Source of the DNA: Nitrosopumilus sp. b3
Lineage (GTDB): Archaea; Thermoproteota; Nitrososphaeria; Nitrososphaerales; Nitrosopumilaceae
Direction of reading: 5' to 3'
Assembly (NCBI RefSeq): GCF_014078525.1
Contig: NZ_MU078696.1
Span: 83,873 to 115,872 of the forward strand
DNA length: 32,000 nucleotides
Both the position numbers and the translations under genes were made by a program. Numbering within the stretch: the stretch's first letter is position 1; each line of letters opens with the position of its first letter. Positions 8,529 through 27,944 of this stretch are shown here, piece after piece. A model generated the notes under the pieces. The model ran no database searches. It was not told the origin of the DNA and saw only the letters and a program-made list of their open reading frames with translations.

Positions 8529-8569
8529 ATGTAAGTTTATAACATAATTCAAATTACTAATAATGAAAA

Positions 8570-10216: not shown

Positions 10217-10236
10217 GAAGACAATAAAAAAGAAAA

Positions 10237-10911
10237 ATGAGAAAAATTACTGTAACTGGTTCTGAAGGATTAATAGGTTCGGAAATATGCAAATATTTTA
10301 AAAATACTGATCACGTTAAAAAACTTGACATTAAACTTGGACATGATCTTTTAGATGAGTCATTTGTAAAAACTTGGTTTAAAAAAAATAAATCTGATTA
10401 TCTTATAAATTGTTTTGCATTAAATGATCATATTAATCCTAAAGGAAAACATTACACTCTGTATGATTTTACTTTAGAATCTTTTTCAAAGTACTTGCAA
10501 ACAAATTTGATATCTTTATTTTCTGTATGTAGAGAATTTGCGCGAAATAACAAATTTGGAGCGATTGTTAATTTTTCTTCTACATATGGATTAGTTTCTC
10601 CAAATCCAGCTTTATATGATGGATTTCATAAAGATATTGGATATGGAGTTTCAAAAGCAGGAGTATTGAATTTAACAAAATATTTGGCTGCACATTTGGC
10701 CCCCAAAATTAGAGTCAATTCAATTGTTCCAGGAGGAATACAATTAAATCAAAATAAAAATTTTATAAAAAACTACTCGAAATTAACTCCGATGAATAGA
10801 ATGATGAAAAAATCAGAATTAAATGGATTAGTGGATTATTTATGTTCAAAAAAATCTAGTTATGTTACTGGTTCTACAATTATAGCTGATGGTGGATATA
10901 CTGCATGGTAG
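10237..10911 (+). CDS. Short-chain dehydrogenase/reductase (SDR)
   Basis: ITVTGSEGLIGSEI glycine-rich loop, YGVSKAG (YxxxK) and RVNSIVPGGI. Confidence 0.75.
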   Translation: MRKITVTGSEGLIGSEICKYFKNTDHVKKLDIKLGHDLLDESFVKTWFKKNKSDYLINCFALNDHINPKGKHYTLYDFTLESFSKYLQTNLISLFSVCREFARNNKFGAIVNFSSTYGLVSPNPALYDGFHKDIGYGVSKAGVLNLTKYLAAHLAPKIRVNSIVPGGIQLNQNKNFIKNYSKLTPMNRMMKKSELNGLVDYLCSKKSSYVTGSTIIADGGYTAW

Positions 10912-10991
10912 GTATTGATACATATATTATTACAGTGAGAAATTCTTTAAAAAGATTATAAAATATAACCATGATGATTGTTAGTTAACAT

Positions 10992-13679
10992 GTGCAGTTT
11001 AATATTCTGTTTTTAAAAAATTCGCTTTTTTTTGACCTTGTTTTTATTTTTATATTATTAATTTCTACATTTTTTATTTTTATCGTGATTCATGATAGTA
11101 TTAACCCCTCATTTATTTCTGATTCCACTTTCTTCATTGGTGTAAGTAATAATCTGTTTGATGGTAAGGGATTAACATCATCTTATATCCCATCGAATTA
11201 TGATTATGCTGGTATACATGGTAATGATATTTCAAATCTAATTAAAACAAATCCTAATATTAATTCTGAATATAGTAAGCCACCTGTATTTTTTATTTTG
11301 GAAGGGGCATTTTTTGAAATTACAAATGCAAACGAATCGAATTGGGTTTTCATTACATCTGTTTTTACTGCAATAATTTCATCATTTTTCATAGTTTTAT
11401 TTTATCTCTTGATCAGAAAATACTTTGAACCCTTTATTGCAGTATCTTCTACATTAGTTGTTTTCACGTCATTTTTCTTTTTAACGGAAATAACACATGG
11501 AATGGCACATACATTGACTTATCTTTTCATTGTACTGGCATTTTTTTTCCTAGAAAAAAAAATTAAACATTATTTTTTATTTGGATTGTTTATTTCTCTT
11601 GGAATTTTAACACATGAATTAGCAGTTATACCATTATTCAGTTACATTACATTTTTGATTTTTAAATATGAGATCAAAGGATCTTTAATAGTTTTAGGTA
11701 CTTGGTTTATTATTTTATTCCCTTGGATGATTAGACAATTTCAAATATTTGGAGATTTTGGCATAGGAGTTGGAATACCTTTTTCCAACACAATTTCATC
11801 ATTTTTTATTGCTGAATCCATTGAATCCTCTCCGATTTTAGGATTGGAAAATGAATTAATCTCTGCTTCTGCATATCTACAACAACTTTTTTTCAATTCA
11901 CATTTACCTTATAATTTACCTAAAACTGATCTTTTAGTATTTTTTTTCATATTTGTAGGATTTTCTTTCTTTTTGTCAACTAAATTACAAAAATGCTTTT
12001 TCATATCAAAGATAAAACAAAAAATATTTTTGATATTAACACTTTCTCTTATTTTAATATTATTTTTAGGTATTTTTGATATTTTAATTCTTAATGGAAT
12101 TACTTTAATTTATGAAACTTTGAACAATCAATTTTATTCTGAAGAATCAACAATGGATTCTGATCAAGAAATAAATAGATTAACTTTAGTTATACAATTT
12201 CTAATTATTTTTATTCCTATTATTACTTTGATATATTTTTTAAGAAAATACTTTTTGAAAAATAATCTTTTTGATAAAGATCTCACAAGATTTCATTCAA
12301 TAATCCCTTTCATTATGATTTTTTCAATTTTTGCAATGTATATTGTAACTATTAGAGCAGGAGGTGTTTATTTTCCACCATTTTACCCAGCTTTATTTTT
12401 AACTCTTCCATTAGGAATACTAGGATTAAAAAAATTTATAGGATTTTTTATTTTTGATGACACTAAACTGAAAAAATTTTTACCATATGTTGTTATTGGA
12501 ATTATTCTTATCATTTCAATTTCTTTTATTTTAGATCAAAGTATTTCTTGGATTATCACAATTCATGAATTTGATTGGAGAACTAATGAAAATTTTCCAG
12601 ATTTTTATAATTGGTTTAATGAAAATATAAACAATGAATCTGTAATTATGACTACTTATCCTGCAAATACTTATCTTAATACTGGAAATCCTACAGTTCC
12701 AATCCCAAATGAATTTTATTCTAACTCATTTGAAACAAAAAGATACATTGAACATTATAATGTAGAATATATTTTACTTCTAAATCCTATTCCTACGGAT
12801 ATAATACGTGCAAAACTTTCATCTTTTACTCCTGTTGTTACTTGCAATCAAGACTGTATGATTTTAAAATATAATCCAAATCAAGAGAATTACATTGAAC
12901 TTGCTGCTAAAGAATTTTTGGAGGTTTACAATTATGATGTCCTGAAAATCAAAAAGTTTCTTTATGATGACTTCGGATGGGATCCAAAACCAAATGAAGA
13001 TGGAGAAATCCAATTAAGACTCAACTTTACTGATGAAGATGTTAATAAATTATCAATATCATTCATTGAATCCACATTTGATCAGATTAATCCTATCATA
13101 CAATTAAGACAAGAAAAAAATAAACAATCTTTAGAAAATGCAAAAATCCATGAACAATCTAATCAGTATTATGATGCATTATCTATATATGATAAACTTT
13201 TAGAAACTAACAAGTTTGATTTTAAAGCATTAGAAGGTAAAATTCGTGTTTATCAGAATCTTGATGATAAAACTCAAGTAAACAAAATTTTTGATGAAAT
13301 TTATTTGTTATATCAAGAAAAAATAAATACAAAAAGTCCTTTTGATTCACCAATTGAAACTTTCCAAACAAAATATCTGGAAACTATTCGTTCTGAGATA
13401 CATTACTGGCAAAATGAATCTAGTGATCGTAAACTACTTGATGCATATGAAGAATTTTTTGAACTTGATAAATTTAGTCAAGAAGGTTGGTATGGAAAAG
13501 CAGAAACCTTAGAAAAATTAGGTAAATTACCTGAAGCGATACGAGATTATAATTTCTTACTTAGAGTGGTCCCTTCTGAACAAACTGATGAAATTCAAAA
13601 TAAAATAACTGAAATAGAAAACCGTTTGAAGTTAGAACCAAAAAATAATAAACAACGAACTAGAATAATTAGTAAATGA
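10992..13679 (+). CDS. Polytopic GT-C-fold (ArnT/PMT_2-like) membrane glycosyltransferase fused to a C-terminal TPR domain
   Basis: About 550 aa with many hydrophobic helices, including KPPVFFILEGAFF (similar to the PPL.. loop of ArnT/PMT_2). The C-terminal ~250 aa contain TPR-like repeats (YYDALSIYDKLLETNKFDFKALEGKIRVY; GWYGKAETLEKLGKLPEAIRDYNFLLRV). No WWDYG motif, so not an STT3/AglB. GTG start; its stop overlaps the next ATG (ATGA). Confidence 0.55.
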   Translation: MQFNILFLKNSLFFDLVFIFILLISTFFIFIVIHDSINPSFISDSTFFIGVSNNLFDGKGLTSSYIPSNYDYAGIHGNDISNLIKTNPNINSEYSKPPVFFILEGAFFEITNANESNWVFITSVFTAIISSFFIVLFYLLIRKYFEPFIAVSSTLVVFTSFFFLTEITHGMAHTLTYLFIVLAFFFLEKKIKHYFLFGLFISLGILTHELAVIPLFSYITFLIFKYEIKGSLIVLGTWFIILFPWMIRQFQIFGDFGIGVGIPFSNTISSFFIAESIESSPILGLENELISASAYLQQLFFNSHLPYNLPKTDLLVFFFIFVGFSFFLSTKLQKCFFISKIKQKIFLILTLSLILILFLGIFDILILNGITLIYETLNNQFYSEESTMDSDQEINRLTLVIQFLIIFIPIITLIYFLRKYFLKNNLFDKDLTRFHSIIPFIMIFSIFAMYIVTIRAGGVYFPPFYPALFLTLPLGILGLKKFIGFFIFDDTKLKKFLPYVVIGIILIISISFILDQSISWIITIHEFDWRTNENFPDFYNWFNENINNESVIMTTYPANTYLNTGNPTVPIPNEFYSNSFETKRYIEHYNVEYILLLNPIPTDIIRAKLSSFTPVVTCNQDCMILKYNPNQENYIELAAKEFLEVYNYDVLKIKKFLYDDFGWDPKPNEDGEIQLRLNFTDEDVNKLSISFIESTFDQINPIIQLRQEKNKQSLENAKIHEQSNQYYDALSIYDKLLETNKFDFKALEGKIRVYQNLDDKTQVNKIFDEIYLLYQEKINTKSPFDSPIETFQTKYLETIRSEIHYWQNESSDRKLLDAYEEFFELDKFSQEGWYGKAETLEKLGKLPEAIRDYNFLLRVVPSEQTDEIQNKITEIENRLKLEPKNNKQRTRIISK

Positions 13680-15040
13680 AGTATAACGTTTTATTTTTAG
13701 TAATTGATTCGTTACGTTCTGATAAATGCTATGATACAACTAAAACGTCAATTACTCCAAATATTGACTCATTAATCAAACAAGGAATTTATTTTTCTCA
13801 GGCAATAAGCTCCATTGCTTCCACTTCACCTTCAATGGGAAGTATGTTTACTGGACTTTTTCCTTTTAAAACTGGAATGAGTAATGATACATATGAAAAA
13901 TTGAATGCTGATGTACCTACATACGTAGAGCATCTCAAAAAGCATGGTTATACTACTTTTGCAACAACGTCTGAAGTAAATTCATTTTTAGGGATAACAG
14001 AAGATTTTGATCTTAAACTAGAATCTTCAACTCATAATAATTACTATGGTTTGTTTAAGGGATTGGGAAAAAAAATTCTTGCAAAGATAGGTTCTATTTT
14101 AAACGAGCCATGGTTTTTTTATATTCACATTAACGACTTACATCAACCAATTGTAGTGCCTGAAAGCTTTGATCATCCAAAATATGGTGAAACCTCATAT
14201 GAAAGAATGGTCTCTGCAATTGATTCATGGATTGGTGAACTTTTGAAAAAAATTAATCTAGAAAATACTTTGATTGTTATTACAGCAGATCATGGAGAAT
14301 ATATTCGCTCATTAAAAATCAATGATCAAATAATAAATCTTGAGTCTGGAATGGGAGAAAAAACTCTTTGGCAAATTGGTAACAAGATTCCTTCTGTATT
14401 ATATGGACCAAAAAAAAAACTTTCATTGTATCTGCACAAAATTAGAAATTCTAGAAGAGAAAAACAAATCAAAAATTTGTCGTTGTCAAAATATGAAGAA
14501 CGAGTACTTACAACATCACGAATGAGTCAAGGTAGTCATGTCTATGATGATGTATTAAAAGTGCCCTTAATTTTTGCAGGGCTTAATATCAAATCTAGTA
14601 AAATAATTTCACAACAAGTAGGTTTAGTAGATGTTTTTCCCACAATTGTTGCATTAATAGGCTTAGAAAATTTGAATTCAAATATTGATGGAACTAGCTT
14701 GATTCCTCTTTTTACAAATCAGCATCTTGATGAAAAACCTATTTTTATTCAAAGCATGCCATATGTCACTGAAAATCATAAAAACTATGTAGGGATTAGA
14801 ACAAGTGACTTCAAATATGTTAGAGATGCTAATAATCATGAAAATTTTGAGCTTTTTGATCTAATTCGTGATCCTCTAGAACAACATGATGTTTCACATG
14901 ATTTTCCTGAAATTGTGACTAAAATGGAGAATATTTTGCAAAATTATCTTAAACAAGAAATTAAACCTGATTCCAAAAAATTAGATGATGTAGAAAGAAA
15001 AAAAGTTGAAGAAGAATTAAAAAAACTTGGATACATCTAA
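13676..15040 (+). CDS. Sulfatase-family (alkaline phosphatase superfamily) protein with Thr at the nucleophile position; probably not a true sulfatase
   Basis: LFLVIDSLRSD (metal Asp), ITADHGE, and the nucleophile segment S-T50-S-P-S-M-GSMFTG (T50 at nt 13823-13825) in place of C/S-x-P-x-R-xxxx-TG. No N-terminal signal peptide. Confidence 0.75.
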   Translation: MKYNVLFLVIDSLRSDKCYDTTKTSITPNIDSLIKQGIYFSQAISSIASTSPSMGSMFTGLFPFKTGMSNDTYEKLNADVPTYVEHLKKHGYTTFATTSEVNSFLGITEDFDLKLESSTHNNYYGLFKGLGKKILAKIGSILNEPWFFYIHINDLHQPIVVPESFDHPKYGETSYERMVSAIDSWIGELLKKINLENTLIVITADHGEYIRSLKINDQIINLESGMGEKTLWQIGNKIPSVLYGPKKKLSLYLHKIRNSRREKQIKNLSLSKYEERVLTTSRMSQGSHVYDDVLKVPLIFAGLNIKSSKIISQQVGLVDVFPTIVALIGLENLNSNIDGTSLIPLFTNQHLDEKPIFIQSMPYVTENHKNYVGIRTSDFKYVRDANNHENFELFDLIRDPLEQHDVSHDFPEIVTKMENILQNYLKQEIKPDSKKLDDVERKKVEEELKKLGYI

Positions 15041-15092
15041 AATCACTTTTTAGTTTAGAACTGTTTTTATTTAAATTCGTTTTTTTAAAAAT

Positions 15093-16208
15093 ATGAATAG
15101 AAAAAATGTTATAATTTTAATGATTGATGGTGGAAGGTTAGATCGTGCTTTATCCTCAACTGTTTTTAACAGACTTAAAAATAATTCTGCCTTTTTCTCT
15201 CAATCTGTAACTTATGGACCTCATACTATAGCTGCTATGCATGCAGTTTTCAGTGGTACATATGGAAATAGGACTGGAACTGATAGCTATTGGTCTACAT
15301 TCAAATTTAAAAAAGATAAATTTAAAACATTAACTGAATACCTTCATGATTTAGAATACTACACTTTAGCTGATGTGGTTAATGAATTAGTTATACCTAA
15401 ACAAGGATTTGATAAATTTCTTATTCATGATGAACTAAAAGATGATCTTACTTCACGTCATTGTAATTACCTTGAAGAAATGAGTAAGATGAATTCCGAA
15501 GGAAAAAATTTCTTCTTGTATCAACAATACAGCAATATTCACACTGGTATTATGAATGAAGTTCTTAAGGTATATGATAATTTTAGCGACGAATATTTTT
15601 CTAATAAAGAAAAAAATGAACAACGTTATGATAAATTATTTGCAGATGCAGAAATTTATTTAGAAACAATTCTTCAACACATTAAAACTCTTGAATTAGA
15701 TAAAAATTCATTAATTTTGATAATGTCTGATCATGGAATTAGTGTGGGAGAAAAAATTGGAGAAAGAGCATATGGTGCATTTTGTTATGATTACACTTTA
15801 CGAACATTTACTTATTTTGTATATCCTGAAATAAAACCTATTGAGATCAAACAACAAGTACGAACCATAGATTTTATGCCTACAATTTTAGATTATCTAA
15901 ATATACCACTTTCTGAAAAATTTGAGAAGATTGATGGTGAATCACTACTTTCTTTGATTAATGGTAATTCAATAGAAGAAAAACTAGCATTTTCAGAAAC
16001 AGGAAATCCACTTAAGGACAATCGGCCTCCAGAAAATCCTAATACTAAATCTATACGTTCATCAAAATGGAAATTTATTTTTAACGAATATGATGGTTCT
16101 AAGGAACTTTATGATCTAGAGTCTGATCCATCTGAAGAAAGCAATCTTATTGGAAAGAATTTAGAAATAGAAAACATTCTTTGGAAAGAAATTCAAAATT
16201 ATCTGTAA
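15093..16208 (+). CDS. Second sulfatase-family / alkaline phosphatase superfamily paralog, also lacking the C/S-x-P-x-R formylglycine motif
   Basis: IILMIDGGRLDR, IMSDHGIS, and the nucleophile region VTYGPHTIAAMHAVFSG (Thr40 or Thr45; no Cys, no Arg). No signal peptide. Its stop is 1 nt from the stop of the convergent nucleotidyltransferase gene. Confidence 0.7.
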   Translation: MNRKNVIILMIDGGRLDRALSSTVFNRLKNNSAFFSQSVTYGPHTIAAMHAVFSGTYGNRTGTDSYWSTFKFKKDKFKTLTEYLHDLEYYTLADVVNELVIPKQGFDKFLIHDELKDDLTSRHCNYLEEMSKMNSEGKNFFLYQQYSNIHTGIMNEVLKVYDNFSDEYFSNKEKNEQRYDKLFADAEIYLETILQHIKTLELDKNSLILIMSDHGISVGEKIGERAYGAFCYDYTLRTFTYFVYPEIKPIEIKQQVRTIDFMPTILDYLNIPLSEKFEKIDGESLLSLINGNSIEEKLAFSETGNPLKDNRPPENPNTKSIRSSKWKFIFNEYDGSKELYDLESDPSEESNLIGKNLEIENILWKEIQNYL

Positions 16209-16209
16209 T

Positions 16210-16959
16210 TTAGATATATTTTTTTTTAGCATTTTCTAGGTCTTGCGGTGTATCAATCTCACACCATTCACCATTTACAATTATTGGTTCAACTAAGATA
16301 TTTTGTTCAATTATCTCTTGAATCATATCTGTTAGATAAGATTTTTTAAAGGTTTTAGCATCACGAAATGGAGCTGGATTATTTTTTTCCACTCTGGTAA
16401 ATTCATCCACAAAAATTTTTGATCCTTTTTCAGAAAATTTCATTATTCCAATAAACTCTCCATTTTTTTGATTTTTTGCAATTTGTGAAATGTTTTTTTT
16501 AATTTTTATAATTTTGTTATTTTCAATTATTACGTTGTCTGCTTGAGATTTTGGATGCTCTGTTCTATTTTCATATTTTGATTCCCAATTTAGATCTGTA
16601 GCAATTCCAATATCTACCTTTGATTGTATGATTTGCTGTAGGATTTTCTCATCGAACAAAATATCTGAATATGTTGTTATGACATCTCCTCTAATTTCAT
16701 TTTTTGCAGCCATTAGGCTCAAAAGAACATCATGTTTTTCATATTCTGTGTCTTCCAAATATCTAATTTTGTTAAATTTGAATTTATCTTTATGTGGTCC
16801 TGTAATTATGATAATTTCTTCAATATTGTTGTTTTTCAAAATTTCTATTTGTCGTTCTAAAATAGATTTACCGTTGATGTCCAATAATCCTTTTGGCATT
16901 TCTTTAGTTTGTGAACCTAGTCTTTTTGCAGATCCTGCAGCAATAATGATAGCTTTCAT
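16210..16959 (-). CDS. Nucleotidyltransferase (NTP_transferase fold); candidate phosphonate cytidylyltransferase (PntC / Fom1-N-domain-like)
   Basis: MKAIIIAAGSAKRLGSQTKEMPKGLL is the G-x-G-x-R-L...K signature. Last gene of the pepM-ppd operon, 6 nt after ppd beta. Confidence 0.75.
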   Translation of the reverse strand: MKAIIIAAGSAKRLGSQTKEMPKGLLDINGKSILERQIEILKNNNIEEIIIITGPHKDKFKFNKIRYLEDTEYEKHDVLLSLMAAKNEIRGDVITTYSDILFDEKILQQIIQSKVDIGIATDLNWESKYENRTEHPKSQADNVIIENNKIIKIKKNISQIAKNQKNGEFIGIMKFSEKGSKIFVDEFTRVEKNNPAPFRDAKTFKKSYLTDMIQEIIEQNILVEPIIVNGEWCEIDTPQDLENAKKKYI

Positions 16960-16965
16960 ATTTTT

Positions 16966-17514
16966 CTAGAGTGAATTTACTACTCTGTCTCTAATAGTTT
17001 TAGGTTTCCATAAAACCCTTTTACTCCTTTCTTTACTAGTAGATATTTTGATTAATAGAAATATTGGCCCATCTTGTTTTTTTATTTGATCTAAAACAGA
17101 AATCAATCTAGTTTTTGACTTTATTACAAATATTTTATAATTAACACTGTTTGCAATTTTTTCCAAACTTATTTTTGATGAATTAGTAGGTTGCCCTCCA
17201 GTTGATTCATGACTATTGTTGTCAAAAACCACATGTACCAAATTCTTTGGCATTAAACTTCCTATGGTGACTAGAGAACCTAAATTCATAAGGATGTTGC
17301 CATCTCCATCAAAAACAAAAATTTGTTTTTTAGGATTTTTTAAAGCAATTCCCAATCCTATGGATGATGCGAGACCCATTGAACCAATCATGTAGAAATT
17401 TGATTTTTTATCATTCATTTCAAATAAATCTCTGCTCATAAATCCATTAGCTGAAACAATCGGATTTTTTCCAGCACTTTTTGCAACAATTTTTACTGCC
17501 TCTTTTCTAATCAT
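16966..17514 (-). CDS. ppd: Phosphonopyruvate decarboxylase, beta subunit (ThDP-binding domain)
   Basis: ThDP motif GDGNILMNLGSLVTIGSLMPKNLVHVVFDNN (nt 17215-17307). 8-nt overlap with the alpha subunit gene. Directly downstream of PEP mutase, which argues against the related sulfopyruvate decarboxylase ComDE. Confidence 0.85.
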   Translation of the reverse strand: MIRKEAVKIVAKSAGKNPIVSANGFMSRDLFEMNDKKSNFYMIGSMGLASSIGLGIALKNPKKQIFVFDGDGNILMNLGSLVTIGSLMPKNLVHVVFDNNSHESTGGQPTNSSKISLEKIANSVNYKIFVIKSKTRLISVLDQIKKQDGPIFLLIKISTSKERSKRVLWKPKTIRDRVVNSL

Positions 17515-17995
17515 GAAACATCCTCCTGATTACAAGCGCACATGGTTTTTTGTCTTTTATTTGGTTTAGTGCCCAATCACAACATGCTTTCCAATTTTTT
17601 TCAGTCATAATTTTCGTTTTTAATCCAATCAGTTTTAGAAGTTCAGGTTGAATTTTACCAATTTTTAGATGTTCTGGAGCGTCATCTGTAAGAAATCCTC
17701 TCCAACCAATAAGAAATATTATTGGAATTTCATAAAGCTGAACTAGAGATGTAATGGTGCTTATTGAATTTGCAAATCCTGCATTTTGCATAAACACCAA
17801 TGATGGACTTTTAGAGAGAGACATTCCTGTGGCAATTCCTACTGCCTCTTCTTCCCTAGTTGTAATTATGATGTTGTTGTTTTTTAAGCATTCATCAATA
17901 AAATATTTTAATGTAGAATCAGGAACTCCTATAAAATTTTCTACCTTGTTCTTTTTTAGATAATGATATGTTTCACGTTGTTCCTTTTCATTCAA
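17507..17995 (-). CDS. ppd: Phosphonopyruvate decarboxylase, alpha subunit (ThDP pyrimidine-binding domain)
   Basis: GVPDSTLKYF...TTREEEAVGIATGMSL...MQNAGFANS is typical of the N-terminal ThDP-enzyme domain. 4-nt overlap with pepM. Confidence 0.85.
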   Translation of the reverse strand: MNEKEQRETYHYLKKNKVENFIGVPDSTLKYFIDECLKNNNIIITTREEEAVGIATGMSLSKSPSLVFMQNAGFANSISTITSLVQLYEIPIIFLIGWRGFLTDDAPEHLKIGKIQPELLKLIGLKTKIMTEKNWKACCDWALNQIKDKKPCALVIRRMFHD

Positions 17996-18891
17996 TTTAT
18001 GTATCCTAATTTTTTTAGATTTTCTTCAATGTCTATTTCCTGCTTTTTTATGTCATACATTTCTTGCAGATGAAATATCTCTTCCATAGAAGTCATTTTT
18101 GTTTTAACATCACCAAGACTTTTTGCTGTAGATAATTCTTTTAGATGTTCTGTCATTGCCCAATGAGCCGCTCGTAGTGATTGATTTGCATAAATTACCA
18201 TTTTTATCTTATGATTTTGAAGTTCCTCCAACGTTACATTTGGATATGATGTAGGAATAGCAATAATGGGTATTTTCCCATTCCATGTATCACAAAATTC
18301 AAAAATTTCATCTGGTAATTTTTTTTTTGAATGAATTAAAATCGCATCAGCACCTGCATTCTCATAAGCATTTGCTCTTTTTTTTGCTTCATCCACTCCC
18401 AATCCTGCGATTAATGCTTCAATTCTCGCTATAATCATAAAATTTTCATTAACTTTAGAATTTTTTGCCGCTAGTATTTTTGCAACAAAATCTTTCTCAG
18501 GCAATAATTCTTGTTTCCCACTTTCTAGAAGACTGTTTTGTTTTGGAAATATCTTGTCTTCTATACTTACTGCAGCAATTCCTGCGCTCTCATATTTCTT
18601 TACCATGTGGCTTACATTACTTGGTCCTCCAAATCCTGTATCACAATCAGCAATTATGGGAATTGAACAAGCATCTGCCATTCTAGATGTTACCGAAAGA
18701 AATTCAGTCATTGTGAGAATGCTTGCATCTGGTAATGCATGAGTTGCAGATATAGCAAAACTACCAGCCCAAACTGCATCAAAATTATTCAATTCTACTA
18801 ATTTCGCAGACATTGCATCAAACCCACCTGCAACTTTCAAAATTTTATTCTCTTTTAATTTTGATTTTAGTAGATTGGCTCCATTACTCAT
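17992..18891 (-). CDS. pepM: Phosphoenolpyruvate phosphomutase (PEP mutase)
   Basis: Isocitrate-lyase-superfamily fold carrying the PepM-diagnostic EDKxxxxxNS motif, EDKIFPKQNS, checked codon by codon at nt 18532-18561. Also IIADCDTGFGG. Confidence 0.9.
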   Translation of the reverse strand: MSNGANLLKSKLKENKILKVAGGFDAMSAKLVELNNFDAVWAGSFAISATHALPDASILTMTEFLSVTSRMADACSIPIIADCDTGFGGPSNVSHMVKKYESAGIAAVSIEDKIFPKQNSLLESGKQELLPEKDFVAKILAAKNSKVNENFMIIARIEALIAGLGVDEAKKRANAYENAGADAILIHSKKKLPDEIFEFCDTWNGKIPIIAIPTSYPNVTLEELQNHKIKMVIYANQSLRAAHWAMTEHLKELSTAKSLGDVKTKMTSMEEIFHLQEMYDIKKQEIDIEENLKKLGYIN

Positions 18892-18953
18892 TTTTATCAG
18901 ACATGTTTAGCAAATAATTTAATATATAATAATAGATCTTTTAGTTTCTTTAT
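18892..18953. promoter_or_regulatory. 62-bp divergent promoter region between pepM and the Fe-ADH gene, with a central AT-rich TATA-like element
   Basis: aatttaatatataataat spans about 18916-18933. Its centre is about 26-27 nt from both start codons (18891 on the minus strand, 18954 on the plus strand), the spacing expected for archaeal TATA boxes driving leaderless mRNAs. Not verified experimentally. Confidence 0.35.
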
Positions 18954-19898
18954 ATGTGGACAATAAAACAACCTCCAAAAATTATCTTTGGAAAAAACTC
19001 AGTTAAAGAATTTTCATTTCCTGATAAGTGCTTAGTAATTACATCCAAGGGAGCAAGATCGCGTGGATGGTTAGAATATGCTGATCTAAACAATACGATA
19101 ATTTTTGATGATGTGGAATCTAATCCCTCAATAGAAACTACTGAAAAGATTATTTCTAAATTTCAAAATTCTGATTTTAGTTATATTGTTGGAATGGGGG
19201 GTGGAAGTTCTATGGATGTAGCCAAGTACTGTGCATTTAAAATGAATAAATTGAAGATAATGATCCCAACTACTTTTGGTAGTGGCAGTGAGGTAACTAG
19301 AATTTCAGTTCTTAAGGTAGATGGTAAGAAAAAAAGCTTTCATGATGATGGACTTTTTGCAGATATTGCCATAATCGATAGTCATTTCATTGAATATTCT
19401 GATGATAACATAATTAAAAATTCAGTAATTGATGCTTGTGCTCAATGTACTGAAGCCTATGACAGTAAACTTGCAAATCCATATACAAAATTTCTTTGTA
19501 ATTCAGCATTTGATCTTTTAGAAGAAGGTATCTTAACTAAGAACTATGAAAAAATTGTAATAGGTTCTTTATTTGATGGTCTTGGATTTGGGAATTCTTC
19601 AACTACATTAGGACATGCTCTCTCTTATGTATATTCCAATGAGGGTGTTTCTCACGGTCATGCCTTAGCTTTTACAACTATGACAGCTCATAAATTTAAC
19701 AATTCTCCATTTTATGAAAGATTTATGAAATTAGTAAAAAAACTCCAGTTTGAAAAAATAAATCTCAATCAGTCTTTAGACGAAGCTGCAGAATTAATTT
19801 TAACAGATAGAAAACACTTAGATAATAATCCAAAAAATGTAACAAAAAATGATATAATTAATCTTTTAAATAATATTAATTCCGAAATGTCTTTTTAA
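18954..19898 (+). CDS. Iron-containing alcohol dehydrogenase; candidate phosphonoacetaldehyde reductase (Pdh/PhpC/FomC-like)
   Basis: GMGGGSSMDVAKY (Fe-ADH NAD(P)-binding glycine motif) and GHALSYVYSNEGVSHGHALAF (metal His cluster). Divergent from pepM. 314 aa, which is short for the family. Confidence 0.75.
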   Translation: MWTIKQPPKIIFGKNSVKEFSFPDKCLVITSKGARSRGWLEYADLNNTIIFDDVESNPSIETTEKIISKFQNSDFSYIVGMGGGSSMDVAKYCAFKMNKLKIMIPTTFGSGSEVTRISVLKVDGKKKSFHDDGLFADIAIIDSHFIEYSDDNIIKNSVIDACAQCTEAYDSKLANPYTKFLCNSAFDLLEEGILTKNYEKIVIGSLFDGLGFGNSSTTLGHALSYVYSNEGVSHGHALAFTTMTAHKFNNSPFYERFMKLVKKLQFEKINLNQSLDEAAELILTDRKHLDNNPKNVTKNDIINLLNNINSEMSF

Positions 19899-19943: not shown

Positions 19944-20837
19944 TCAATGACGTTTTTCTCTTACTACACTTACAAGTGAAAATAACATTATTGATGTCAT
20001 CATTAACATAGCTCCCAAAATTGTAGAGCCTATTCCAAGTAAAGCTAAATTTGTAATCACTTGGCGTGTATCTGTAAATCCTTGAATAGTCCATAAAATA
20101 AAGAATAGTCCTAAAGTTAAAAAAAAGATTCCTGGCAATCCATAGAATTTCAAAGGGTGCTCTATTGAGATAAATTTTAGAGTGCTAACAATTACTAAGA
20201 CACCATGTGATACAGGATGGTGGGTAGAAGTATTTCCTTCATACGATACTATTATTGGAACTTCAATGACTTTAAAATTCATTTTTGATGCTTTTATTAA
20301 AATCTCTGTTGAAACACCCATTCCATAATCAGAAGGTGTTATGGCATTAAGGATTTTTTTTGAATATGCACGAAAACCACTCTGTGAGTCAGTAATGTCT
20401 TTCCCTATTGATGTGTTGGTAATTTTTGTTATGACTTTGATTCCCATTTTTCTATATTTTGGAATGGAACTATCTTTATCGAGAAATCTTGAACCTATGA
20501 CTATGTCTGCATCTTGATCAAGAATTGGCTGTATTACCGATTCTATGTCCTTTACATTATGTTGACCATCAGCATCAAATGTTACTAAAATATCACACTC
20601 GATCTCTTTTCCTTTAATGAACAGGCTACGAATGCTTGCACCATAACCTAAATTTTTGGGATGGTTTATGACAGCTGCTCCTAATTTTTCAGCAATCAAT
20701 GCAGTTGAATCATTTGAACCATCATTACAAACTATGATCGTATCTGTGTACTGTTTTAATTGCGTAATAATTTTTCCAATATTTTGTTCTTCATTATATG
20801 CAGGCAGACCTATAGCTATTTTCATTACTACTTTCAT
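19944..20837 (-). CDS. GT2-family glycosyltransferase with C-terminal TM helices (dolichyl-phosphate hexose synthase-like)
   Basis: IAIGLPAYNEEQNI, IVCNDGSNDST and TFDADGQH (DxD-type) motifs. C-terminal hydrophobic segments (GIFFLTLGLFFILW; LALLGIGSTILGAMLMM). The start may be M1 (20837) or M5 (20825). Confidence 0.8.
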   Translation of the reverse strand: MKVVMKIAIGLPAYNEEQNIGKIITQLKQYTDTIIVCNDGSNDSTALIAEKLGAAVINHPKNLGYGASIRSLFIKGKEIECDILVTFDADGQHNVKDIESVIQPILDQDADIVIGSRFLDKDSSIPKYRKMGIKVITKITNTSIGKDITDSQSGFRAYSKKILNAITPSDYGMGVSTEILIKASKMNFKVIEVPIIVSYEGNTSTHHPVSHGVLVIVSTLKFISIEHPLKFYGLPGIFFLTLGLFFILWTIQGFTDTRQVITNLALLGIGSTILGAMLMMTSIMLFSLVSVVREKRH

Positions 20838-22880: not shown

Positions 22881-22968
22881 AAAAATAATAAAACAAAATA
22901 GGGTTATATTTTGTACCTAAATTTACACTATCAGTTGATTTTTAAAATGTTAAATTTTGATACTCTGT

Positions 22969-24024
22969 ATGGTTGATACTATTATTGATTCATCTTTGAG
23001 AACAGTTGAATGGAAAGATAACAAAGTAATAATGATTGACCAGACCAAGCTTCCAAACGAGCTTGTTTTTGTAGAATATGATGATTTCACCCAGGTTGCA
23101 GATGCCATCAAAACTTTGGTGGTTAGAGGCGCACCTGCAATTGGAGTATCAGGTGCATTTGGGTTAGCATTAACTGCATTACAAAGTAAGGCAACAACCA
23201 AAGACGATTTACTGTCTGATTTAGAAAATGCTAGAAAAATCCTTTTTGCAACTAGACCAACTGCAGTGAATCTGGGTTGGGGATTGGAAAAAATCATGAA
23301 TGTTGCAAAATCAGGAGATACAGTTGAACAAATTAAAAAACTAGTTATTGAAACTGCAAAAAAAATGGCAGAGGAAGACATTGAAATTAACAAAGCCATG
23401 GGAAAGAACGGCTCTGCTCTTTTTGATGATAATGACACTATAATGACTCACTGTAATGCAGGTGCTCTAGCTACAGTAGCATATGGAACGGCACTAGGTG
23501 TAATTAGAGCAACAAGAGAATCTGGAAAGAACATCAAAGTAATAGCTACTGAGACAAGACCGATCCAGCAGGGCTCAAGACTCACTGTCTTTGAACTAAA
23601 GCATGACGGATTTGATGTCAGTCTAATTCCAGATACCGCTGTAGGATACTCAATGGCTAATGGATTGGTAAACAAAGTTGTAGTTGGTGCAGACAGAATT
23701 GTAAAGACAGGTCATGTCTTTAACAAAATTGGAACCTATCAGGTGGCAACCATGGCAAAGCAACACGGAATTCCATTTTACGTAGCAGCCCCACTATCCA
23801 CCATTGATCTTGAAACCAAAGCAGAAGATGTAATTATTGAGATGCGTAAAGGAAGCGAAGTCACAGGAATTGGATACAAAAAGACTGCTCCTGATGATAT
23901 CAACGTGATAAATCCGGCATTTGATATGACGCCGCCTGAACTAATTTCAGGAATAATTACCGAAAAAGGTGTGGCAAGAGCTCCATACGAGAAATCAATC
24001 CCAAAATTATTTCAAGCTAATTAA
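22969..24024 (+). CDS. mtnA: Methylthioribose-1-phosphate isomerase / aIF-2B-I family isomerase
   Basis: VEWKDNKVIMIDQTKLPNE, AIKTLVVRGAPAIG, TRPTAVNL, THCNAG and GADRI. I prefer the in-frame ATG at 22969 over the ORF-track TTG at 22957. Confidence 0.8.
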   Translation: MVDTIIDSSLRTVEWKDNKVIMIDQTKLPNELVFVEYDDFTQVADAIKTLVVRGAPAIGVSGAFGLALTALQSKATTKDDLLSDLENARKILFATRPTAVNLGWGLEKIMNVAKSGDTVEQIKKLVIETAKKMAEEDIEINKAMGKNGSALFDDNDTIMTHCNAGALATVAYGTALGVIRATRESGKNIKVIATETRPIQQGSRLTVFELKHDGFDVSLIPDTAVGYSMANGLVNKVVVGADRIVKTGHVFNKIGTYQVATMAKQHGIPFYVAAPLSTIDLETKAEDVIIEMRKGSEVTGIGYKKTAPDDINVINPAFDMTPPELISGIITEKGVARAPYEKSIPKLFQAN

Positions 24025-24063
24025 TAGAAAGTTTTTATTGTTTTTCAAGCTGCACCATACAAT

Positions 24064-24702
24064 ATGAGTACTGTCTCTGCACAAGCAATTGAGGACTCTT
24101 TAAAACAATGCATGGATCCCGAAGTCCCTCTAAACATTGTAGAGATGGGATTAATCTATGGAATTGATGTTGCTGAAAACAATGATGTCAATATCAAAAT
24201 GACGATGACCACTCAAGGCTGTCCACTACACGAAACACTAGTCCAAGATGCAACAAGATATGCCAAAAAGGTTCCAGGAGTGAACAATGTCAAAATTGAC
24301 ATCGTATGGGAGCCTGCATGGTCAATGGATAAGATGACTGAAGAAGGAAAAATGAAATTAAAAAGTATGGGTGCTGCAATGAACACTCCTGCACCAATAA
24401 ACTATGAAACTGCATTGCCCCAAGGAGTTGGAAAACTAGTGCAACAAGAGGATGGTTCCATGGTATTGGCAAACGAGCATGATCAAGGATTTATGGTTAA
24501 TCAAGCAATTGTTGACTTTTGGAAATCATGTAACGGGCAACGCAAAGTAACAGAACTAGTAGAAGTGTTTGCCCAACAGACAGGACTGCAAAGAAACCAA
24601 GTAGAAAAAGAAGTCATGCAGTTACTGCAACAGTTACGTGAGGGCGGATTGATTGCAATTGCAGGCCAGCCAGACACGCCAAATGTTGAATTTAAAAAAT
24701 AA
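24064..24702 (+). CDS. Fusion protein: N-terminal DUF59 (SufT/MIP18-like Fe-S assembly domain) and C-terminal PqqD-like domain
   Basis: N-terminal: MDPEVPLNIVEMGLIY...MTMTTQGCPLHE...IDIVWEPAW. C-terminal: VNQAIVDFWKSCNGQRKVTELVEVFAQQTGLQRNQVEKEVMQLLQQLREGGLI matches the PqqD/RRE consensus pattern. Confidence 0.6.
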   Translation: MSTVSAQAIEDSLKQCMDPEVPLNIVEMGLIYGIDVAENNDVNIKMTMTTQGCPLHETLVQDATRYAKKVPGVNNVKIDIVWEPAWSMDKMTEEGKMKLKSMGAAMNTPAPINYETALPQGVGKLVQQEDGSMVLANEHDQGFMVNQAIVDFWKSCNGQRKVTELVEVFAQQTGLQRNQVEKEVMQLLQQLREGGLIAIAGQPDTPNVEFKK

Positions 24703-24733
24703 TCTTAAATCATTTTGAAATTTTCTAAATCTG

Positions 24734-24886
24734 TTATTCATATGTGTGTAGTTTATGCGTTTTTTCAAATTCCGTCCCATTTACGTAACCTTTTGTTAAT
24801 GCAAACTCCCATAGATTGTATTTATCACTATACAATTCACCGAGTTGGCTTTTTGTCTTAAAAAGACTCAATCCCAATTTGCGCAT
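24734..24886 (-). CDS. Possible small ORF (50 aa), below the ORF-track cutoff
   Basis: Hand-translated: MRKLGLSLFKTKSQLGELYSDKYNLWEFALTKGYVNGTEFEKTHKLHTYE. Lies 31 nt downstream of the HTH gene on the same strand. No family recognised. Confidence 0.2.
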   Translation of the reverse strand: MRKLGLSLFKTKSQLGELYSDKYNLWEFALTKGYVNGTEFEKTHKLHTYE

Positions 24887-24917
24887 CTTAAATAATATCA
24901 TCGTAGATTTCTCTGAA

Positions 24918-25415
24918 TCACATCTTAGTACTATTGTCTCTTTTTTTTATCTCTTCTTCAGAAATGGCTGATCCTTCACTAAAATTTTTTAACAAAATAA
25001 ATCTAATTACACGTTTGACTAGACCCTCATCTATGTCTTTTATGATTGTATTTACTTTGGTTTTATCCTTCATATTCTTTTCCGCGTATTCAAGAATCTT
25101 TGTATCTAGTCGATAAATTCTATCTTCTATTGCTAGATAATTTTCATCATCTTCGTTTAGATGATCGAATAATCTGCCTCTTTGTGATTCTAACCGCTGA
25201 AATTGCTTTGCAATCCAACTGGTATAATCATATTTTAAATAATTTTCATCAAGCTGATCATTCCAAAATTGTATGTCTTCATTTATTGTATTTCGATTTA
25301 CATCTAAGATCTTACTTATTGCTACAGCTGATTTGCCTTGTTCGATATGGAGTTTGAAAACTTTGTTTCTTCTCTCTTCTCTTTGCTTCTTGGTATAAGG
25401 TCCACCATTTTTCAT
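24918..25415 (-). CDS. Helix-turn-helix DNA-binding protein (resolvase/transposase-type HTH at the N-terminus, coiled-coil-like remainder)
   Basis: GGPYTKKQREERRNKVFKLHIEQGKSAVAISKILDVNRNTINEDI resembles HTH_7/HTH_23-type motifs. Flanked by 215 and 336 nt of non-coding DNA. Confidence 0.4.
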   Translation of the reverse strand: MKNGGPYTKKQREERRNKVFKLHIEQGKSAVAISKILDVNRNTINEDIQFWNDQLDENYLKYDYTSWIAKQFQRLESQRGRLFDHLNEDDENYLAIEDRIYRLDTKILEYAEKNMKDKTKVNTIIKDIDEGLVKRVIRFILLKNFSEGSAISEEEIKKRDNSTKM

Positions 25416-25751
25416 CCAAATAATACAATTTCTTGTAATTTAATTTCGTTGAGCAAAAATATTTCACTTTTTTCATTTTTAGATATGATCAATAATGTCT
25501 AGTCTAGATCGTTCATTATGCCACATTCAATTATTTTAATTTATTCCAAACTGCAAAATCTAGGAACATTCAACGATCTTATGGAGTAATTTGATCGAGT
25601 TGATCCAACAAGTTCAAAATTATAAGCTCAAAAGTGAAAGTAATTTATCTATGGATAAAACCATCACTTTGACTAAAGTCACATTTTAGTAACAAACAGA
25701 TAAAAAATCTAGATAAATTTATCCAAAAACTGCATAGTTCTGCATAGTTTT

Positions 25752-26399
25752 CTAAAAGATATAGTTTGAATTTGCACCATCAAAGTTTATTGTAACACCT
25801 GACAGATACTTTATTTTGTTTTCAATTATTGCTTTGACAAAGCTTCCAATCTCTTCAGGCTCACCTAGTCTTTTCATGAGTAATGATTTTTTGTACTCTT
25901 CAACATTTTCTACTAATTCTTTCGTTCTATCTGTATTGATGGGACCTGGCGCAATATTGATACAACTAATGTTTCTTTGAGCATATTCTTTACTCAATAC
26001 TTTGAAAACCTCACTAAACGCTGCACGATAGGCCGAAGAAATTATCAATTTCATATTTGGTTCTTTGATCACATTTGAACTAATCAAAAAGATATATCCT
26101 CCATCACTAATTTTGATATTTTGCAAAATTGTACAAAATCCTAAAAATAATTGATTGTGGTATAGTTTCCAATCCTCTTGTGATATTTCAGAAAATGGTT
26201 TTGAAGCCGGACCTCCTGTATTTAGTACTAAAATGTCTGTTTGATTGTGTTTTTCAAGAAATTGTTTTACACTGTCTAAATCTGAAGTATCTATATCTTT
26301 TTTAGAAGCAGCAAATACATCAATTCCTATTGATTTTAGAGAATCTGCAATTGCTTTTCCTATTCCTCTGGAACCTCCAAGAACAATAGCACTTGCCAT
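25752..26399 (-). CDS. SDR-family protein with an atypical active site (Y-x-x-x-F instead of Y-x-x-x-K)
   Basis: VLGGSRGIGKAI, LNTGG and NIAPGPINTD are SDR features. The Tyr124 codon is at 26028-26030, and position +4 is Phe128 (26016-26018, checked on the sequence). Confidence 0.65.
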   Translation of the reverse strand: MASAIVLGGSRGIGKAIADSLKSIGIDVFAASKKDIDTSDLDSVKQFLEKHNQTDILVLNTGGPASKPFSEISQEDWKLYHNQLFLGFCTILQNIKISDGGYIFLISSNVIKEPNMKLIISSAYRAAFSEVFKVLSKEYAQRNISCINIAPGPINTDRTKELVENVEEYKKSLLMKRLGEPEEIGSFVKAIIENKIKYLSGVTINFDGANSNYIF

Positions 26400-26425
26400 A
26401 ATACTCTCAAAATCTTTGTGGATAA

Positions 26426-26665
26426 TTAAATTTCTTTAATTTCAGTAATTGTGCCTAACACTGAATCCATTTGGATAACTGCCTTTTTCTCATCCCATCC
26501 TAATGCAACATACCAATCTCCTGCATCATCATGATATTTTGTCTCCAAAGTTTCAATATTTTCTGGTTTTACATCATATTTTTTTGCAATACCAGATACT
26601 GCCAAAGCAATTGCATCCTTTTCTTTCTCTAATCGTCTTTTCATTAACCCAATTCCAGGACTCAT
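26426..26665 (-). CDS. Hypothetical small protein (79 aa)
   Basis: ORF-track entry, co-directional with and 26 nt upstream of the SDR gene. No recognisable motif. Confidence 0.35.
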   Translation of the reverse strand: MSPGIGLMKRRLEKEKDAIALAVSGIAKKYDVKPENIETLETKYHDDAGDWYVALGWDEKKAVIQMDSVLGTITEIKEI

Positions 26666-26772
26666 AGAATTCCTTTCATTGTTTCATCTAATATAGTTAA
26701 TTCACAAAATTAGCCATAATGTTGAATTTTTCTAATATTCTTACAATATTACAAATAACCCAAATACTTTGA

Positions 26773-27375
26773 ATGAATAAAATGAGATTAATTCAAAGAT
26801 TATCTAATTCTAGACTAGCCAAATCTTCTACTCTAGTTTCTCTAGTATCAATTCTTGCAGTAATTGGTCCTGTTGTTATAGTTTCAGCAGGATTTTGGGA
26901 TGCAATATCCCACCTCCAAAAAGAACCAGAATTTTTTTGGAGTCCTTCTCATATGATAGTATACTTTGGAGTATCAATGACTACATGTTCTGCAATAATG
27001 GGCTGCATGCTAATATTTAGAAAATCAGTTCATGGCTCTCTCAAAACTGGAATTAAACTGGTAATTGTTGGATCTATATTACAAATTGTTTCGGGATTTG
27101 GTGATTCTTTATCTCATGATATTTTTGGCATTGATGGATTGATATCCTGGTCTCACCAACCTCTGGAATTGGGTCTAGTTCTTGCATCATTAGGTGGAAT
27201 ATTGATCCTAAAGAATAGGGAGCATACAAAACTCAAGGCATTTCTTCCATTCTCAATTGTAACTTTCTTGTTTTTTACAACTTGGCTATTCTTTAATTTG
27301 GTACTAATTTTTGGGCATACAATTCAATGTATTCCAGTCTATGAAATATTCTCTTCTGGATGCTCAATTTTGTAG
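26773..27375 (+). CDS. Polytopic membrane protein with repeated His-containing loops (WDAISH, SPSH, GDSLSHD, SWSH)
   Basis: About 5-6 hydrophobic helices by eye. No family recognised. The 3' end overlaps the convergent ORF by 37 nt. Confidence 0.45.
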   Translation: MNKMRLIQRLSNSRLAKSSTLVSLVSILAVIGPVVIVSAGFWDAISHLQKEPEFFWSPSHMIVYFGVSMTTCSAIMGCMLIFRKSVHGSLKTGIKLVIVGSILQIVSGFGDSLSHDIFGIDGLISWSHQPLELGLVLASLGGILILKNREHTKLKAFLPFSIVTFLFFTTWLFFNLVLIFGHTIQCIPVYEIFSSGCSIL

Positions 27376-27830: not shown

Positions 27831-27869
27831 ACATTCTTGCCAAATTATTAGCCTAATAAGATAATCTAA

Positions 27870-27944
27870 AGGGCTCGGAGGGCTTCGATCCCTCGACCTA
27901 GCGGTTCGAAGCCGCTCGCACTATCCAGGCTGTGCAACGAGTCC
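27870..27944 (-). tRNA. tRNA-Arg (anticodon TCG)
   Basis: Hand-folded reverse complement: GGACTCG TT GCAC AGCCTGGATA GTGC G AGCGG CTTCGAA CCGCT AGGTC GAGGG ATCGAAG CCCTC CGAGCCC (+T discriminator). The D, anticodon and T stems pair perfectly. The acceptor stem has one A3:C70 mismatch. No encoded CCA and no intron. Confidence 0.85.

Follow-up and report, generated by a model that had tools for sequence, protein, structure and literature searches.

A stretch of 32,000 nucleotides (nt) of Nitrosopumilus sp. b3 (contig NZ_MU078696.1), referred to here in its full length as the window, contains a cluster of phosphonate biosynthesis genes that lacks mpnS, the gene for methylphosphonate synthase (MpnS). 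The cluster encodes phosphoenolpyruvate (PEP) mutase (PepM), a phosphonopyruvate decarboxylase (Ppd) split into two halves, a short iron-type alcohol dehydrogenase (ADH), a nucleotidyltransferase (NTase) and two sulfatase-fold proteins, one of which, of 371 amino acids (aa), we call S371 (Table 1). The absence of mpnS is one of two alternating cassettes, NTase-sulfatase and NTase-sulfatase-mpnS, and not a simple deletion. In our judgment the allele of the Nitrosopumilaceae phosphonate cluster found in the window is probably the mpnS-less one, of the 2-hydroxyethylphosphonate (HEP) type, whose product would be HEP activated with cytidine monophosphate (CMP) and attached to a surface glycan.

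The missing mpnS gene and the two cassettes

The window was searched with ten thaumarchaeal MpnS proteins by tblastn and with a hidden Markov model (HMM) built from the same ten. No MpnS/HEPD/HppE-like sequence was found in its six frames: the best tblastn match covered 33 aa at E = 0.004, and the HMM gave nothing better than E = 0.58. The six-frame search likewise returned no mpnS remnant, and no cupin-like open reading frame (ORF) was present among all window ORFs scanned with Pfam and NCBIfam. An earlier reading of this DNA, hereafter the original prediction, had stated that no MpnS/HepD-type gene lies in the window, with which these negative results agree. Its statement that every ORF longer than 200 aa has another plausible assignment held insofar as none is cupin-like; it failed for ORF 26773-27375, which has no family match, and for ORF 127-840, whose sole match, to a glycosyltransferase, is weak.

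Related loci were found via PepM in the GTDB species representatives, which do not include b3 (best genome match 88%), and the ORFs of each locus were tabulated. In the relatives MpnS is encoded by a recurrent ORF of 456-462 aa beside the cluster, without counterpart in the window. One relative's copy scored 660 bits against 6b9s, the Nitrosopumilus maritimus MPnS structure (Born et al. 2017), and 303 bits against HEPD; nine copies of this 2-His-1-Gln bicupin all keep His/Gln/His as ligands. The mpnS-containing loci share a fixed order, consisting of a sulfatase-like gene (~450 aa), mpnS, a second sulfatase-like gene (~373 aa), the convergent NTase-ppdB-ppdA-pepM genes and the divergent ADH gene. 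The position of mpnS between the two sulfatase-like genes was found in 11/11 mpnS-containing genome loci, which refines the original prediction, since the place of mpnS is this slot and not the position after the ADH gene. When the window was compared with L171, an mpnS-bearing contig of a close relative that served as the reference for per-gene comparison, the indel fell at 5463-6958 of L171 and 15034-15102 of the window, and nothing in the window corresponded to the mpnS gene there.

To test linkage without bias, 80 metagenome loci were picked by MpnS instead of PepM. pepM was located ~2.9 kb from mpnS in 48/48 informative loci, defined as those with at least ~3.2 kb of downstream flank, and in 21/21 of a stricter set flanked by 6 kb or more on either side; the loci of this sample without pepM all end too early to reach it. 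Since mpnS also lies inside the cluster in the 11 genome loci and in 6 loci added later, it was unlinked in 0/65 informative loci, and such strict linkage makes an unlinked mpnS in b3 unlikely. A hidden mpnS is also unlikely because many assemblies, independent of one another, show the same arrangement without mpnS (L002, L003, L005, L008, L012, L014, L020, L169 from Nitrosopumilus sp. S6, and L172-L177), and because the window NTase and S371 alleles belong to a class found only in mpnS-less clusters. Among the scorable thaumarchaeal pepM loci of GTDB representatives, 11 had mpnS and 8 did not (window counted). No gene family specific to mpnS-less loci was found among the loci compared, which argues that no substitute enzyme is present. 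Taken together, the absence of mpnS from the window, its linkage elsewhere and the allele class support the view of the original prediction that the end product is probably not methylphosphonate.

The mpnS-bearing close relatives (L165-L168, L170 and L171) have PepM proteins 85-95% identical to that of the window. Compared with L171, DNA identity was 93-98% over 16962-19811, and 63-71% over 15189-16962. Protein identities followed the same division, with values of 97, 95, 93 and 94% for ADH, PepM, PpdA and PpdB, respectively, and of 48 and 65% for the NTase and S371. The 454-aa sulfatase-like protein was 85% identical to the L171 copy, whose gene precedes mpnS, at both the protein and the DNA level, while the genes of the NeuB module (NeuB, GMD, AP_endonuc_2 and GFO/IDH) were 81-90% identical in protein and ~84% in DNA. 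The per-gene table gave the same mosaic for the other relatives. The sharp drop in identity at the ppdB/NTase boundary indicates that two cassettes have been exchanged on a near-identical backbone; homologous recombination in the interval from ppdB to the upstream sulfatase-like gene would account for this swap. A concatenated five-gene tree had placed the window in a stable and monophyletic lineage without mpnS, a picture overturned by the presence of mpnS in the loci with 85-95% PepM identity. Because of recombination the concatenated tree is misleading, and per-gene comparison is needed.

Residues that track mpnS were sought in 69 mpnS-containing clusters (11 genome, 55 metagenome and 3 further) and 9 mpnS-less clusters. 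NTase residue 141, located within the conserved segment R132-x-x-H135-P-x-x-x-A140-[D/E]-N-V, was Asp in 9/9 mpnS-less and Glu in 69/69 mpnS-containing clusters. Residue 78 was Val (8) or Gln (1) in the former vs Ile (68) or Met (1) in the latter, and 45 positions were invariant among 45 aligned NTase sequences. The best 120 database homologs of the window NTase (55-100% identity) carried V78 in 120/120 and D141 in 119/120 cases. When three NTase homologs on long contigs were looked up blind, the cluster was present and mpnS absent in 6/6 loci returned. S371 displayed a similar division, as its position 96 was V/H/P in 9 mpnS-less vs I/L in 76 mpnS-containing clusters. Other candidate positions were dropped: segregation of NTase position 66 and of S371 positions 110, 111, 124 and 315 was lost once more sequences were added, and the segregating columns of PepM and ADH were variable on both sides. 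The side chains of NTase residues 78 and 141 are each one methylene shorter on the mpnS-less side (Val vs Ile, Asp vs Glu), and the reduced bulk of Asp and Val would leave space for HEP, the larger phosphonate. A similar steric argument, for Glu in PntC vs Asp in LicC, was advanced by Rice et al. (PMC6697681).

We tentatively propose, with somewhat less than even confidence, that cassettes bearing I78/E141, I96 and mpnS (methylphosphonate) or V78/D141 and V96 (HEP) are swapped by homologous recombination, with their enzymes co-adapted to phosphonate size, that Thaumarchaeota are a source of both phosphonates, and that the Thr-type sulfatase-fold proteins are new CMP-phosphonate:glycan phosphonyl transferases. 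We found no earlier description of cassette alternation on near-identical backbones or of an NTase/sulfatase-like signature that tracks mpnS, and both appear to be new.

Core enzymes, nucleotidyltransferase and sulfatase-fold proteins

The Pfam and NCBIfam scans of the window ORFs were supplemented with sequence searches of the PDB, and the results were concordant. PepM is 100% identical to WP_182129700.1 (Nitrosopumilus sp. b3), and its best PDB matches are the PEP mutases 5unc (E = 7e-70) and 1m1b (E = 6e-61). Against TIGR02320 PEP_mutase it scored 290.5 bits, under the cut-off of 319.55, this being still its top NCBIfam family; phosphonopyruvate hydrolase scored 252 bits. The sequence EDKIFPKQNS (PepM residues 111-120) lies at 18532-18561. 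It matches the EDK-x5-NS motif, the criterion of Acker et al., in which the Asn sets PepM apart from phosphonopyruvate hydrolase and lyases. PepM is furthermore linked to an enzyme that consumes phosphonopyruvate, as ppdA overlaps pepM by 4 nt. PpdA matched positions 2-152 of TIGR03297 Ppyr-DeCO2ase with 104 bits vs 97 bits for sulfopyruvate decarboxylase alpha (ComD), and PpdB matched positions 171-339 with 175.7 bits vs 159.5 bits for the beta subunit (ComE), each half scoring below the whole-protein cut-off of TIGR03297. It is the overlap with pepM that leads us to assign the pair as Ppd and not as ComDE. The ppdA and ppdB genes overlap by 8 nt, and PpdB contains the GDG-x27-NN thiamine diphosphate (ThDP) motif at 17215-17307.

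The ADH gene is divergent from pepM, with a 62-nt spacer between them, and a length of 310-319 aa is the norm for this protein across related thaumarchaeal clusters. The sequence fits a group III iron ADH: alignment with bacterial pepM-linked ADHs showed no change in the nucleotide-binding GGGS motif or in the metal ligands D160, H221 and H234; the fourth ligand position is Q164, as in the ADH of the Streptomyces monomycini cluster. Judged by its sequence, the enzyme would reduce phosphonoacetaldehyde to HEP.

The NTase matched the LicC 1jyk profile with E = 8.6e-21. Foldseek returned PntC 6pd2, a phosphonate-specific cytidylyltransferase, as the best PDB match of its AlphaFold model (pLDDT 93.7), with E = 1.3e-17 and TM 0.78, followed by LicC 1jyk (TMt 0.81); sequence identity to PntC is only ~24%. 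In the related clusters examined the NTase gene starts 1-10 nt after ppdB, except in L019 and L020, where it lies elsewhere in the cluster. The enzyme is predicted to convert HEP to CMP-HEP, with CTP as the presumed nucleotide; what points to these substrates, indirectly, is that its allele (V78/D141 vs I78/E141) co-varies with mpnS. These domain assignments and motifs support the PEP-to-HEP core and activating nucleotidyltransferase of the original prediction, which had also placed both motifs, the two operon overlaps, the 6-nt gap before the NTP-transferase gene, the divergent Fe-ADH gene and the convergent GT2 gene beyond it exactly where we found them. The genes it assigned to 16210-19898 are as described, although that limit was too narrow, since both sulfatase-fold genes further to the left also belong to the cluster.

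The S371 gene adjoins that of the NTase throughout the loci examined, the two exceptions being L019 and L003 (the latter together with L175-L177, which are close copies of it). In its motif, TYGPHTIAAMHAVFSG, T40, T45, S54 and G55 are invariant in 86/86 sequences; D12, the N-terminal metal-binding residue, is invariant together with T40 and T45. S371 has no formylglycine motif C/S-x-P-x-R, showing T-I-A-A-M there. The 454-aa protein has none either, its T-S-P-S-M aligning opposite x-x-P-S-R of sulfatase 6b0k. Thr50 takes the place of the formylglycine Cys/Ser in this larger protein and is present in 71/73 homologs, while D11 is found in 73/73. Both proteins have Met/Leu where sulfatases have Arg, and Arg was not seen there in their homologs. 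Neither has a signal peptide, and S371 shows no signal peptide or transmembrane segment before its metal-binding Asp when read from sequence. In the alkaline phosphatase superfamily, Thr nucleophiles are typical of members that transfer phosphoryl groups, which is why we propose these proteins as phosphonyl transferases or esterases: they may pass a phosphonyl group from a CMP-phosphonate to an acceptor, or hydrolyze such esters. The Thr-type nature of these 'sulfatases' appears not to have been reported, as no earlier description was found.

Table 1. Features of the phosphonate cluster and its neighbors (window coordinates)
Feature	Position	Strand	Basis
Sulfatase-fold protein S371, 371 aa	15093..16208	+	PF00884, SGSH_C
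Second sulfatase-fold/NPP-like protein, 454 aa	13676..15040	+	PF00884, Phosphodiest, SGSH_C
52-nt spacer in the mpnS slot	15041..15092		L171 equivalent 5463-6958 contains a 458-aa MpnS gene; flanks align on both sides
PntC/LicC-type nucleotidyltransferase (NTase), 249 aa, V78/D141 class	16210..16959	-	NTP_transf_3; 6 nt after ppdB
Recombination breakpoint at ppdB stop/NTase start	16955..16970		Identity break vs L171 near 16962
Phosphonopyruvate decarboxylase beta half (C-terminal ThDP-binding), PpdB, 182 aa	16966..17514	-	TPP_enzyme_C
Phosphonopyruvate decarboxylase alpha half (N-terminal ThDP/pyrimidine-binding), PpdA, 162 aa	17507..17995	-	TPP_enzyme_N
PEP mutase (PepM), 299 aa	17992..18891	-	PF13714, 190 bits (cut-off 31.5); EDKIFPKQNS
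Short Fe-type alcohol dehydrogenase (ADH) of 314 aa, putative phosphonoacetaldehyde reductase forming 2-HEP	18954..19898	+	Fe-ADH and ADH_Fe_C domains
Polytopic PMT_2 (GT-C) protein with C-terminal TPR repeats, 895 aa	10992..13679	+	PMT_2, 26.2 bits (cut-off 26.1); weak TPR
GT2 dolichyl-phosphate hexose transferase/AglJ-like	19944..20837	-	PF00535; AglJ 126.8 and PpgS 135.7 bits, both below cut-off

Several variants of the cluster were noted among the related loci. Nitrosopumilaceae archaeon IBTHAUMO2 has two pepM clusters on separate contigs (L005 and L008), both mpnS-less and with D141 NTases. The single-cell genome of Nitrosopumilus sp. AH-660-L10 (L031, 6356-9497) contains a decayed phosphonate cluster, with no N runs in the locus, in which pepM is broken or frameshifted (193-aa ORF; tblastn covers residues 1-299), both ppd genes are absent, and the last 45 codons of mpnS persist upstream of a sulfatase-like gene. 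In the mpnS-less loci labeled Nitrosopelagicus, a 275-aa PhyH-family Fe/2-oxoglutarate dioxygenase gene lies between the NTase and sulfatase-like genes (L003, 12699-13526; L175-L177, 8766-9593) and the ADH is shortened to 235 aa; the dioxygenase may mark a hydroxylated HEP derivative. A 441-aa Lactamase_B_3 gene and a 98-aa Rieske gene adjoin the ADH gene in several clusters (L165-L170, ~5357-6993), independent of the presence of mpnS, and are absent from the window. Clusters of thaumarchaeal type and synteny, with PepM 66-70% identical, were also found in metagenome-assembled genomes (MAGs) of bacteria (L007 and L013, Patescibacteria MAG CRAIB_MAG54; L020, Chloroflexota SP196), where they are probably binning contamination.

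Predicted product, alternatives and known systems

In the pathway that we propose, PepM would convert PEP to phosphonopyruvate, the split Ppd would decarboxylate phosphonopyruvate to phosphonoacetaldehyde, and the short Fe-ADH would reduce the latter to HEP. The PntC/LicC-type NTase would then form CMP-HEP, from which the phosphonyl group would pass to a glycan or glycoprotein, probably via the two cytoplasmic Thr-nucleophile sulfatase-fold proteins. With no MpnS present, HEP would not be cleaved to methylphosphonate. We infer all of the enzyme activities, HEP as the final head group and the acceptor from the genes.

One alternative is that HEP serves as an intermediate that enzymes outside the core aminate, hydroxylate, methylate or oxidize further, leaving another phosphonate as the head group. 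The window does encode an aminotransferase of class III (957-2273) as well as a B12-radical SAM enzyme (8570-10216), some mpnS-less relatives have the PhyH dioxygenase gene beside that of the NTase, and Fom3 methylates CMP-HEP in fosfomycin synthesis (PMC6697681, PMC9381506). However, the genes for both of these enzymes accompany the MptE-like/NeuB module in the pepM-free loci L082-L084 and are absent from the other pepM loci searched, while mpnS-less clusters have no specific gene family in common and the window contains neither a PhyH nor a cupin gene. We therefore regard further modification of HEP as unlikely in the window.

We give still less credence to continued synthesis of methylphosphonate by an mpnS located elsewhere in the genome, alone or in a second phosphonate cluster, which we consider improbable. 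Very close relatives of the locus do carry mpnS (L171, L165-L168 and L170), and two pepM clusters (L005 and L008) occur together in one thaumarchaeal genome; yet both clusters of that genome lack mpnS, none of the 65 informative loci has mpnS apart from pepM, and the NTase and S371 alleles of the window are of the class found only without mpnS.

It is very unlikely that the cluster is a productless remnant of a methylphosphonate cluster decaying after loss of mpnS. Decay occurs, as the frameshifted pepM, missing ppd genes and 45-aa mpnS remnant of L031 attest, but all seven genes of the window cluster are intact and translationally coupled, its architecture is kept across NTase homologs down to 55% identity, and, in place of an mpnS remnant or deletion scar, the NTase and S371 genes represent a replaced allele. 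Equally unlikely is the notion that the NTase and sulfatase-like genes are mere neighbors serving the ordinary sugar-nucleotide or sulfate-ester metabolism of an island that is indeed rich in sugar-nucleotide genes, with sugar-1-phosphate transferases among the below-cut-off NCBIfam matches of the NTase, given that the NTase gene starts 1-10 nt after ppdB with S371 beside it in nearly all loci, that the two switch allele together with mpnS, that the closest NTase structure is the phosphonate-specific PntC, and that the sulfatase-like proteins lack the C/S-x-P-x-R motif.

Several points weigh against our preferred reading of the window as a HEP-type allele. To our knowledge, MpnS is the sole enzyme of the archaeal phosphonate cluster to have been assayed. 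N. maritimus Pdh was insoluble in E. coli, forming inclusion bodies (PMC12619172). The NTase tree consists of one 98%-supported mpnS-less clade and basal branches; the D/E split may accordingly reflect one to three events, and shared ancestry explains part of the association. A reading of the D141/E141 association as many independent convergent events is tempered by this tree. HMMER alignments of the NTase with LicC and PntC end at approximately residue 115. The absence of mpnS pertains to the 32-kb window, and a genome with two pepM clusters (IBTHAUMO2) exists. Finally, the extra PhyH-type dioxygenase of some mpnS-less relatives (L003 and L175-L177), of which the window has none, indicates that some mpnS-less clusters may end in a head group other than HEP.

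An mpnS-less cluster of the HEP type is a known kind of system, and the window can be compared with several precedents. The methylphosphonate biosynthetic cluster of N. maritimus SCM1, reportedly the subject of work by Metcalf et al. in 2012, belongs to the same lineage and shares pepM, split ppd, a short Fe-ADH, a nucleotidyltransferase and sulfatase-like genes, its content being known to us from citing papers and equivalent loci. The gene order and coupling of the window match those of 11 genome and 48 metagenome mpnS loci other than that of SCM1, several of which share the mtnA and PGI/PMI neighborhood. Unlike the SCM1-type cluster, the window is without mpnS, and its NTase/sulfatase-like alleles are of a different class, V78/D141 instead of I78/E141.

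As in the Pnt (PntC) and LicC phosphocholine pathways (Rice et al. 2019, PMC6697681), a LicC-like nucleotidyltransferase gene lies beside the mutase gene (ppm), and the predicted logic is the transfer of a CMP-phosphonate to a cell-surface glycan. The window differs from the Pnt pathway in its archaeal host and in its branch-point enzyme acting on phosphonoacetaldehyde, which is an ADH (yielding HEP) and not a 2-aminoethylphosphonate transaminase; it also has no LicD-like transferase, with the Thr-type sulfatase-fold proteins in its place. The fosfomycin enzymes Fom1/FomC/Fom2 perform the same four predicted steps, namely those of PEP mutase, phosphonopyruvate decarboxylase, Fe-ADH and HEP cytidylylation, with the cytidylyltransferase domain of Fom1 making CMP-HEP; in phosphonate tailoring, activation by a nucleotidyl group is the rule (PMC6697681). 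In contrast to the fosfomycin system, the window NTase is separate from PepM, there is no linked Fom3-type methyltransferase and there are no Fom4/FomD homologs, and we expect its product to decorate the cell surface and not to act as an antibiotic.

The predicted esterification of HEP to a polysaccharide also has parallels. HEP-phosphonoglycans of Stackebrandtia nassauensis and Glycomyces are attributed to Yu et al. 2014 in the passages of PMC8942020 and PMC13576164 that cite that work, and HEP esters in marine dissolved organic matter (DOM) of high molecular weight to Repeta et al. 2016 in the citing passage of PMC5649143. Such esters are thus on record from marine DOM polysaccharides and from actinomycete phosphonoglycans (PMC5649143, PMC8931226, PMC8942020); they are prominent in the former, where attack by C-P lyase leads to ethylene (PMC5649143). 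The producers of the phosphonoglycans are actinomycetes; an archaeal HEP-glycan is a prediction made here from genes.

Marine Thaumarchaeota are routinely credited with methylphosphonate and methane on the basis of pepM-type markers. Qin et al. listed ammonia-oxidizing archaea whose methylphosphonate pathway is 'complete or nearly complete' (PMC7490402), and in ocean surveys pepM, ppd and phpC are far commoner than mpnS, all three occurring in Thaumarchaeota (PMC9381506, PMC8931226). Clusters with >90% identical pepM can differ in mpnS, however, and since mpnS varies among near-identical pepM clusters, counts of pepM, ppd and pdh as well as pepM phylogeny are unfit for attributing methylphosphonate. 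Such attribution needs mpnS itself, or the D141/E141 signature of the NTase as a proxy. The mpnS-less allele is a candidate biological source of the HEP esters of marine DOM, an ethylene precursor; if so, Thaumarchaeota would be a source of both methane and ethylene precursors in marine DOM polysaccharides. The cassette pair also offers a natural experiment on how phosphonate cytidylyltransferases choose their substrates and on what the sulfatase-like proteins do.

The surrounding glycan island

The cluster is located at the edge of a variable cell-surface glycosylation island that abuts mtnA; in L083 and L084 the island reaches mtnA without any phosphonate genes. To the left in the window lies a module for nonulosonic acid, encoding NeuB, GDP-mannose dehydratase, a CMP-sugar synthetase-like protein, the class-III aminotransferase, an MptE-like protein, the B12-radical SAM enzyme and an SDR protein. 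Compared with the collinear L171, the window contains ~6.7 kb of extra DNA (6968-13671) between the GFO/IDH oxidoreductase gene and that of the 454-aa sulfatase-like protein, comprising the MptE-like, B12-radical SAM, SDR and PMT_2/TPR genes. The core genes to the right of the cluster (22957-31888) are 86-96% identical to those of Nitrosopumilus loci L016-L021, while the phosphonate genes of these loci are only 45-70% identical. This contrast indicates that the phosphonate/glycan island evolves and recombines independently of the flanking chromosome.

The PMT_2/TPR gene shares 4 nt with the 454-aa sulfatase-like gene, its stop running into the start of the latter. L171 has no such PMT_2/TPR gene, and PMT_2 genes flank that of the ADH in L173 and L174. 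The 895-aa protein is a possible acceptor-side glycosyl- or oligosaccharyltransferase, and its membership in the phosphonate module is uncertain. Homologs of the GT2 gene lie beside the cluster in L002, L019 and L169.

A Fom3-like route to CMP-2-hydroxypropylphosphonate was considered and rejected, as the radical SAM enzyme belongs to the MptE-like/NeuB module, which also occurs in pepM-free loci. Homologs 70-88% identical to it always follow an MptE-like gene in NeuB modules, and a search of the 20 remaining thaumarchaeal pepM loci from GTDB yielded none; the later-added pepM loci L165-L168 have the MptE-like/B12-radical SAM pair a few kb away. The pair, consisting of an MptE-like (Maf/PseD-like) and a 548-aa B12-radical SAM protein, was seen at 7452-10216 (+ strand) of the window, 8837-11647 of L082, 8833-11659 of L083 and L084, and 632-3333 of L165. 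It is 70-88% identical across Nitrosopumilus and Nitrosotalea, with or without pepM nearby, and C-methylation of nonulosonic acid is one possibility for its role. A different B12-radical SAM gene, whose product is 23% identical to that of the window, lies ~0.9 kb downstream of pepM in a MAG of the anammox bacterium Candidatus Scalindua (L023, 11755-12831), and marks a candidate P- or C-methylating phosphonate pathway.

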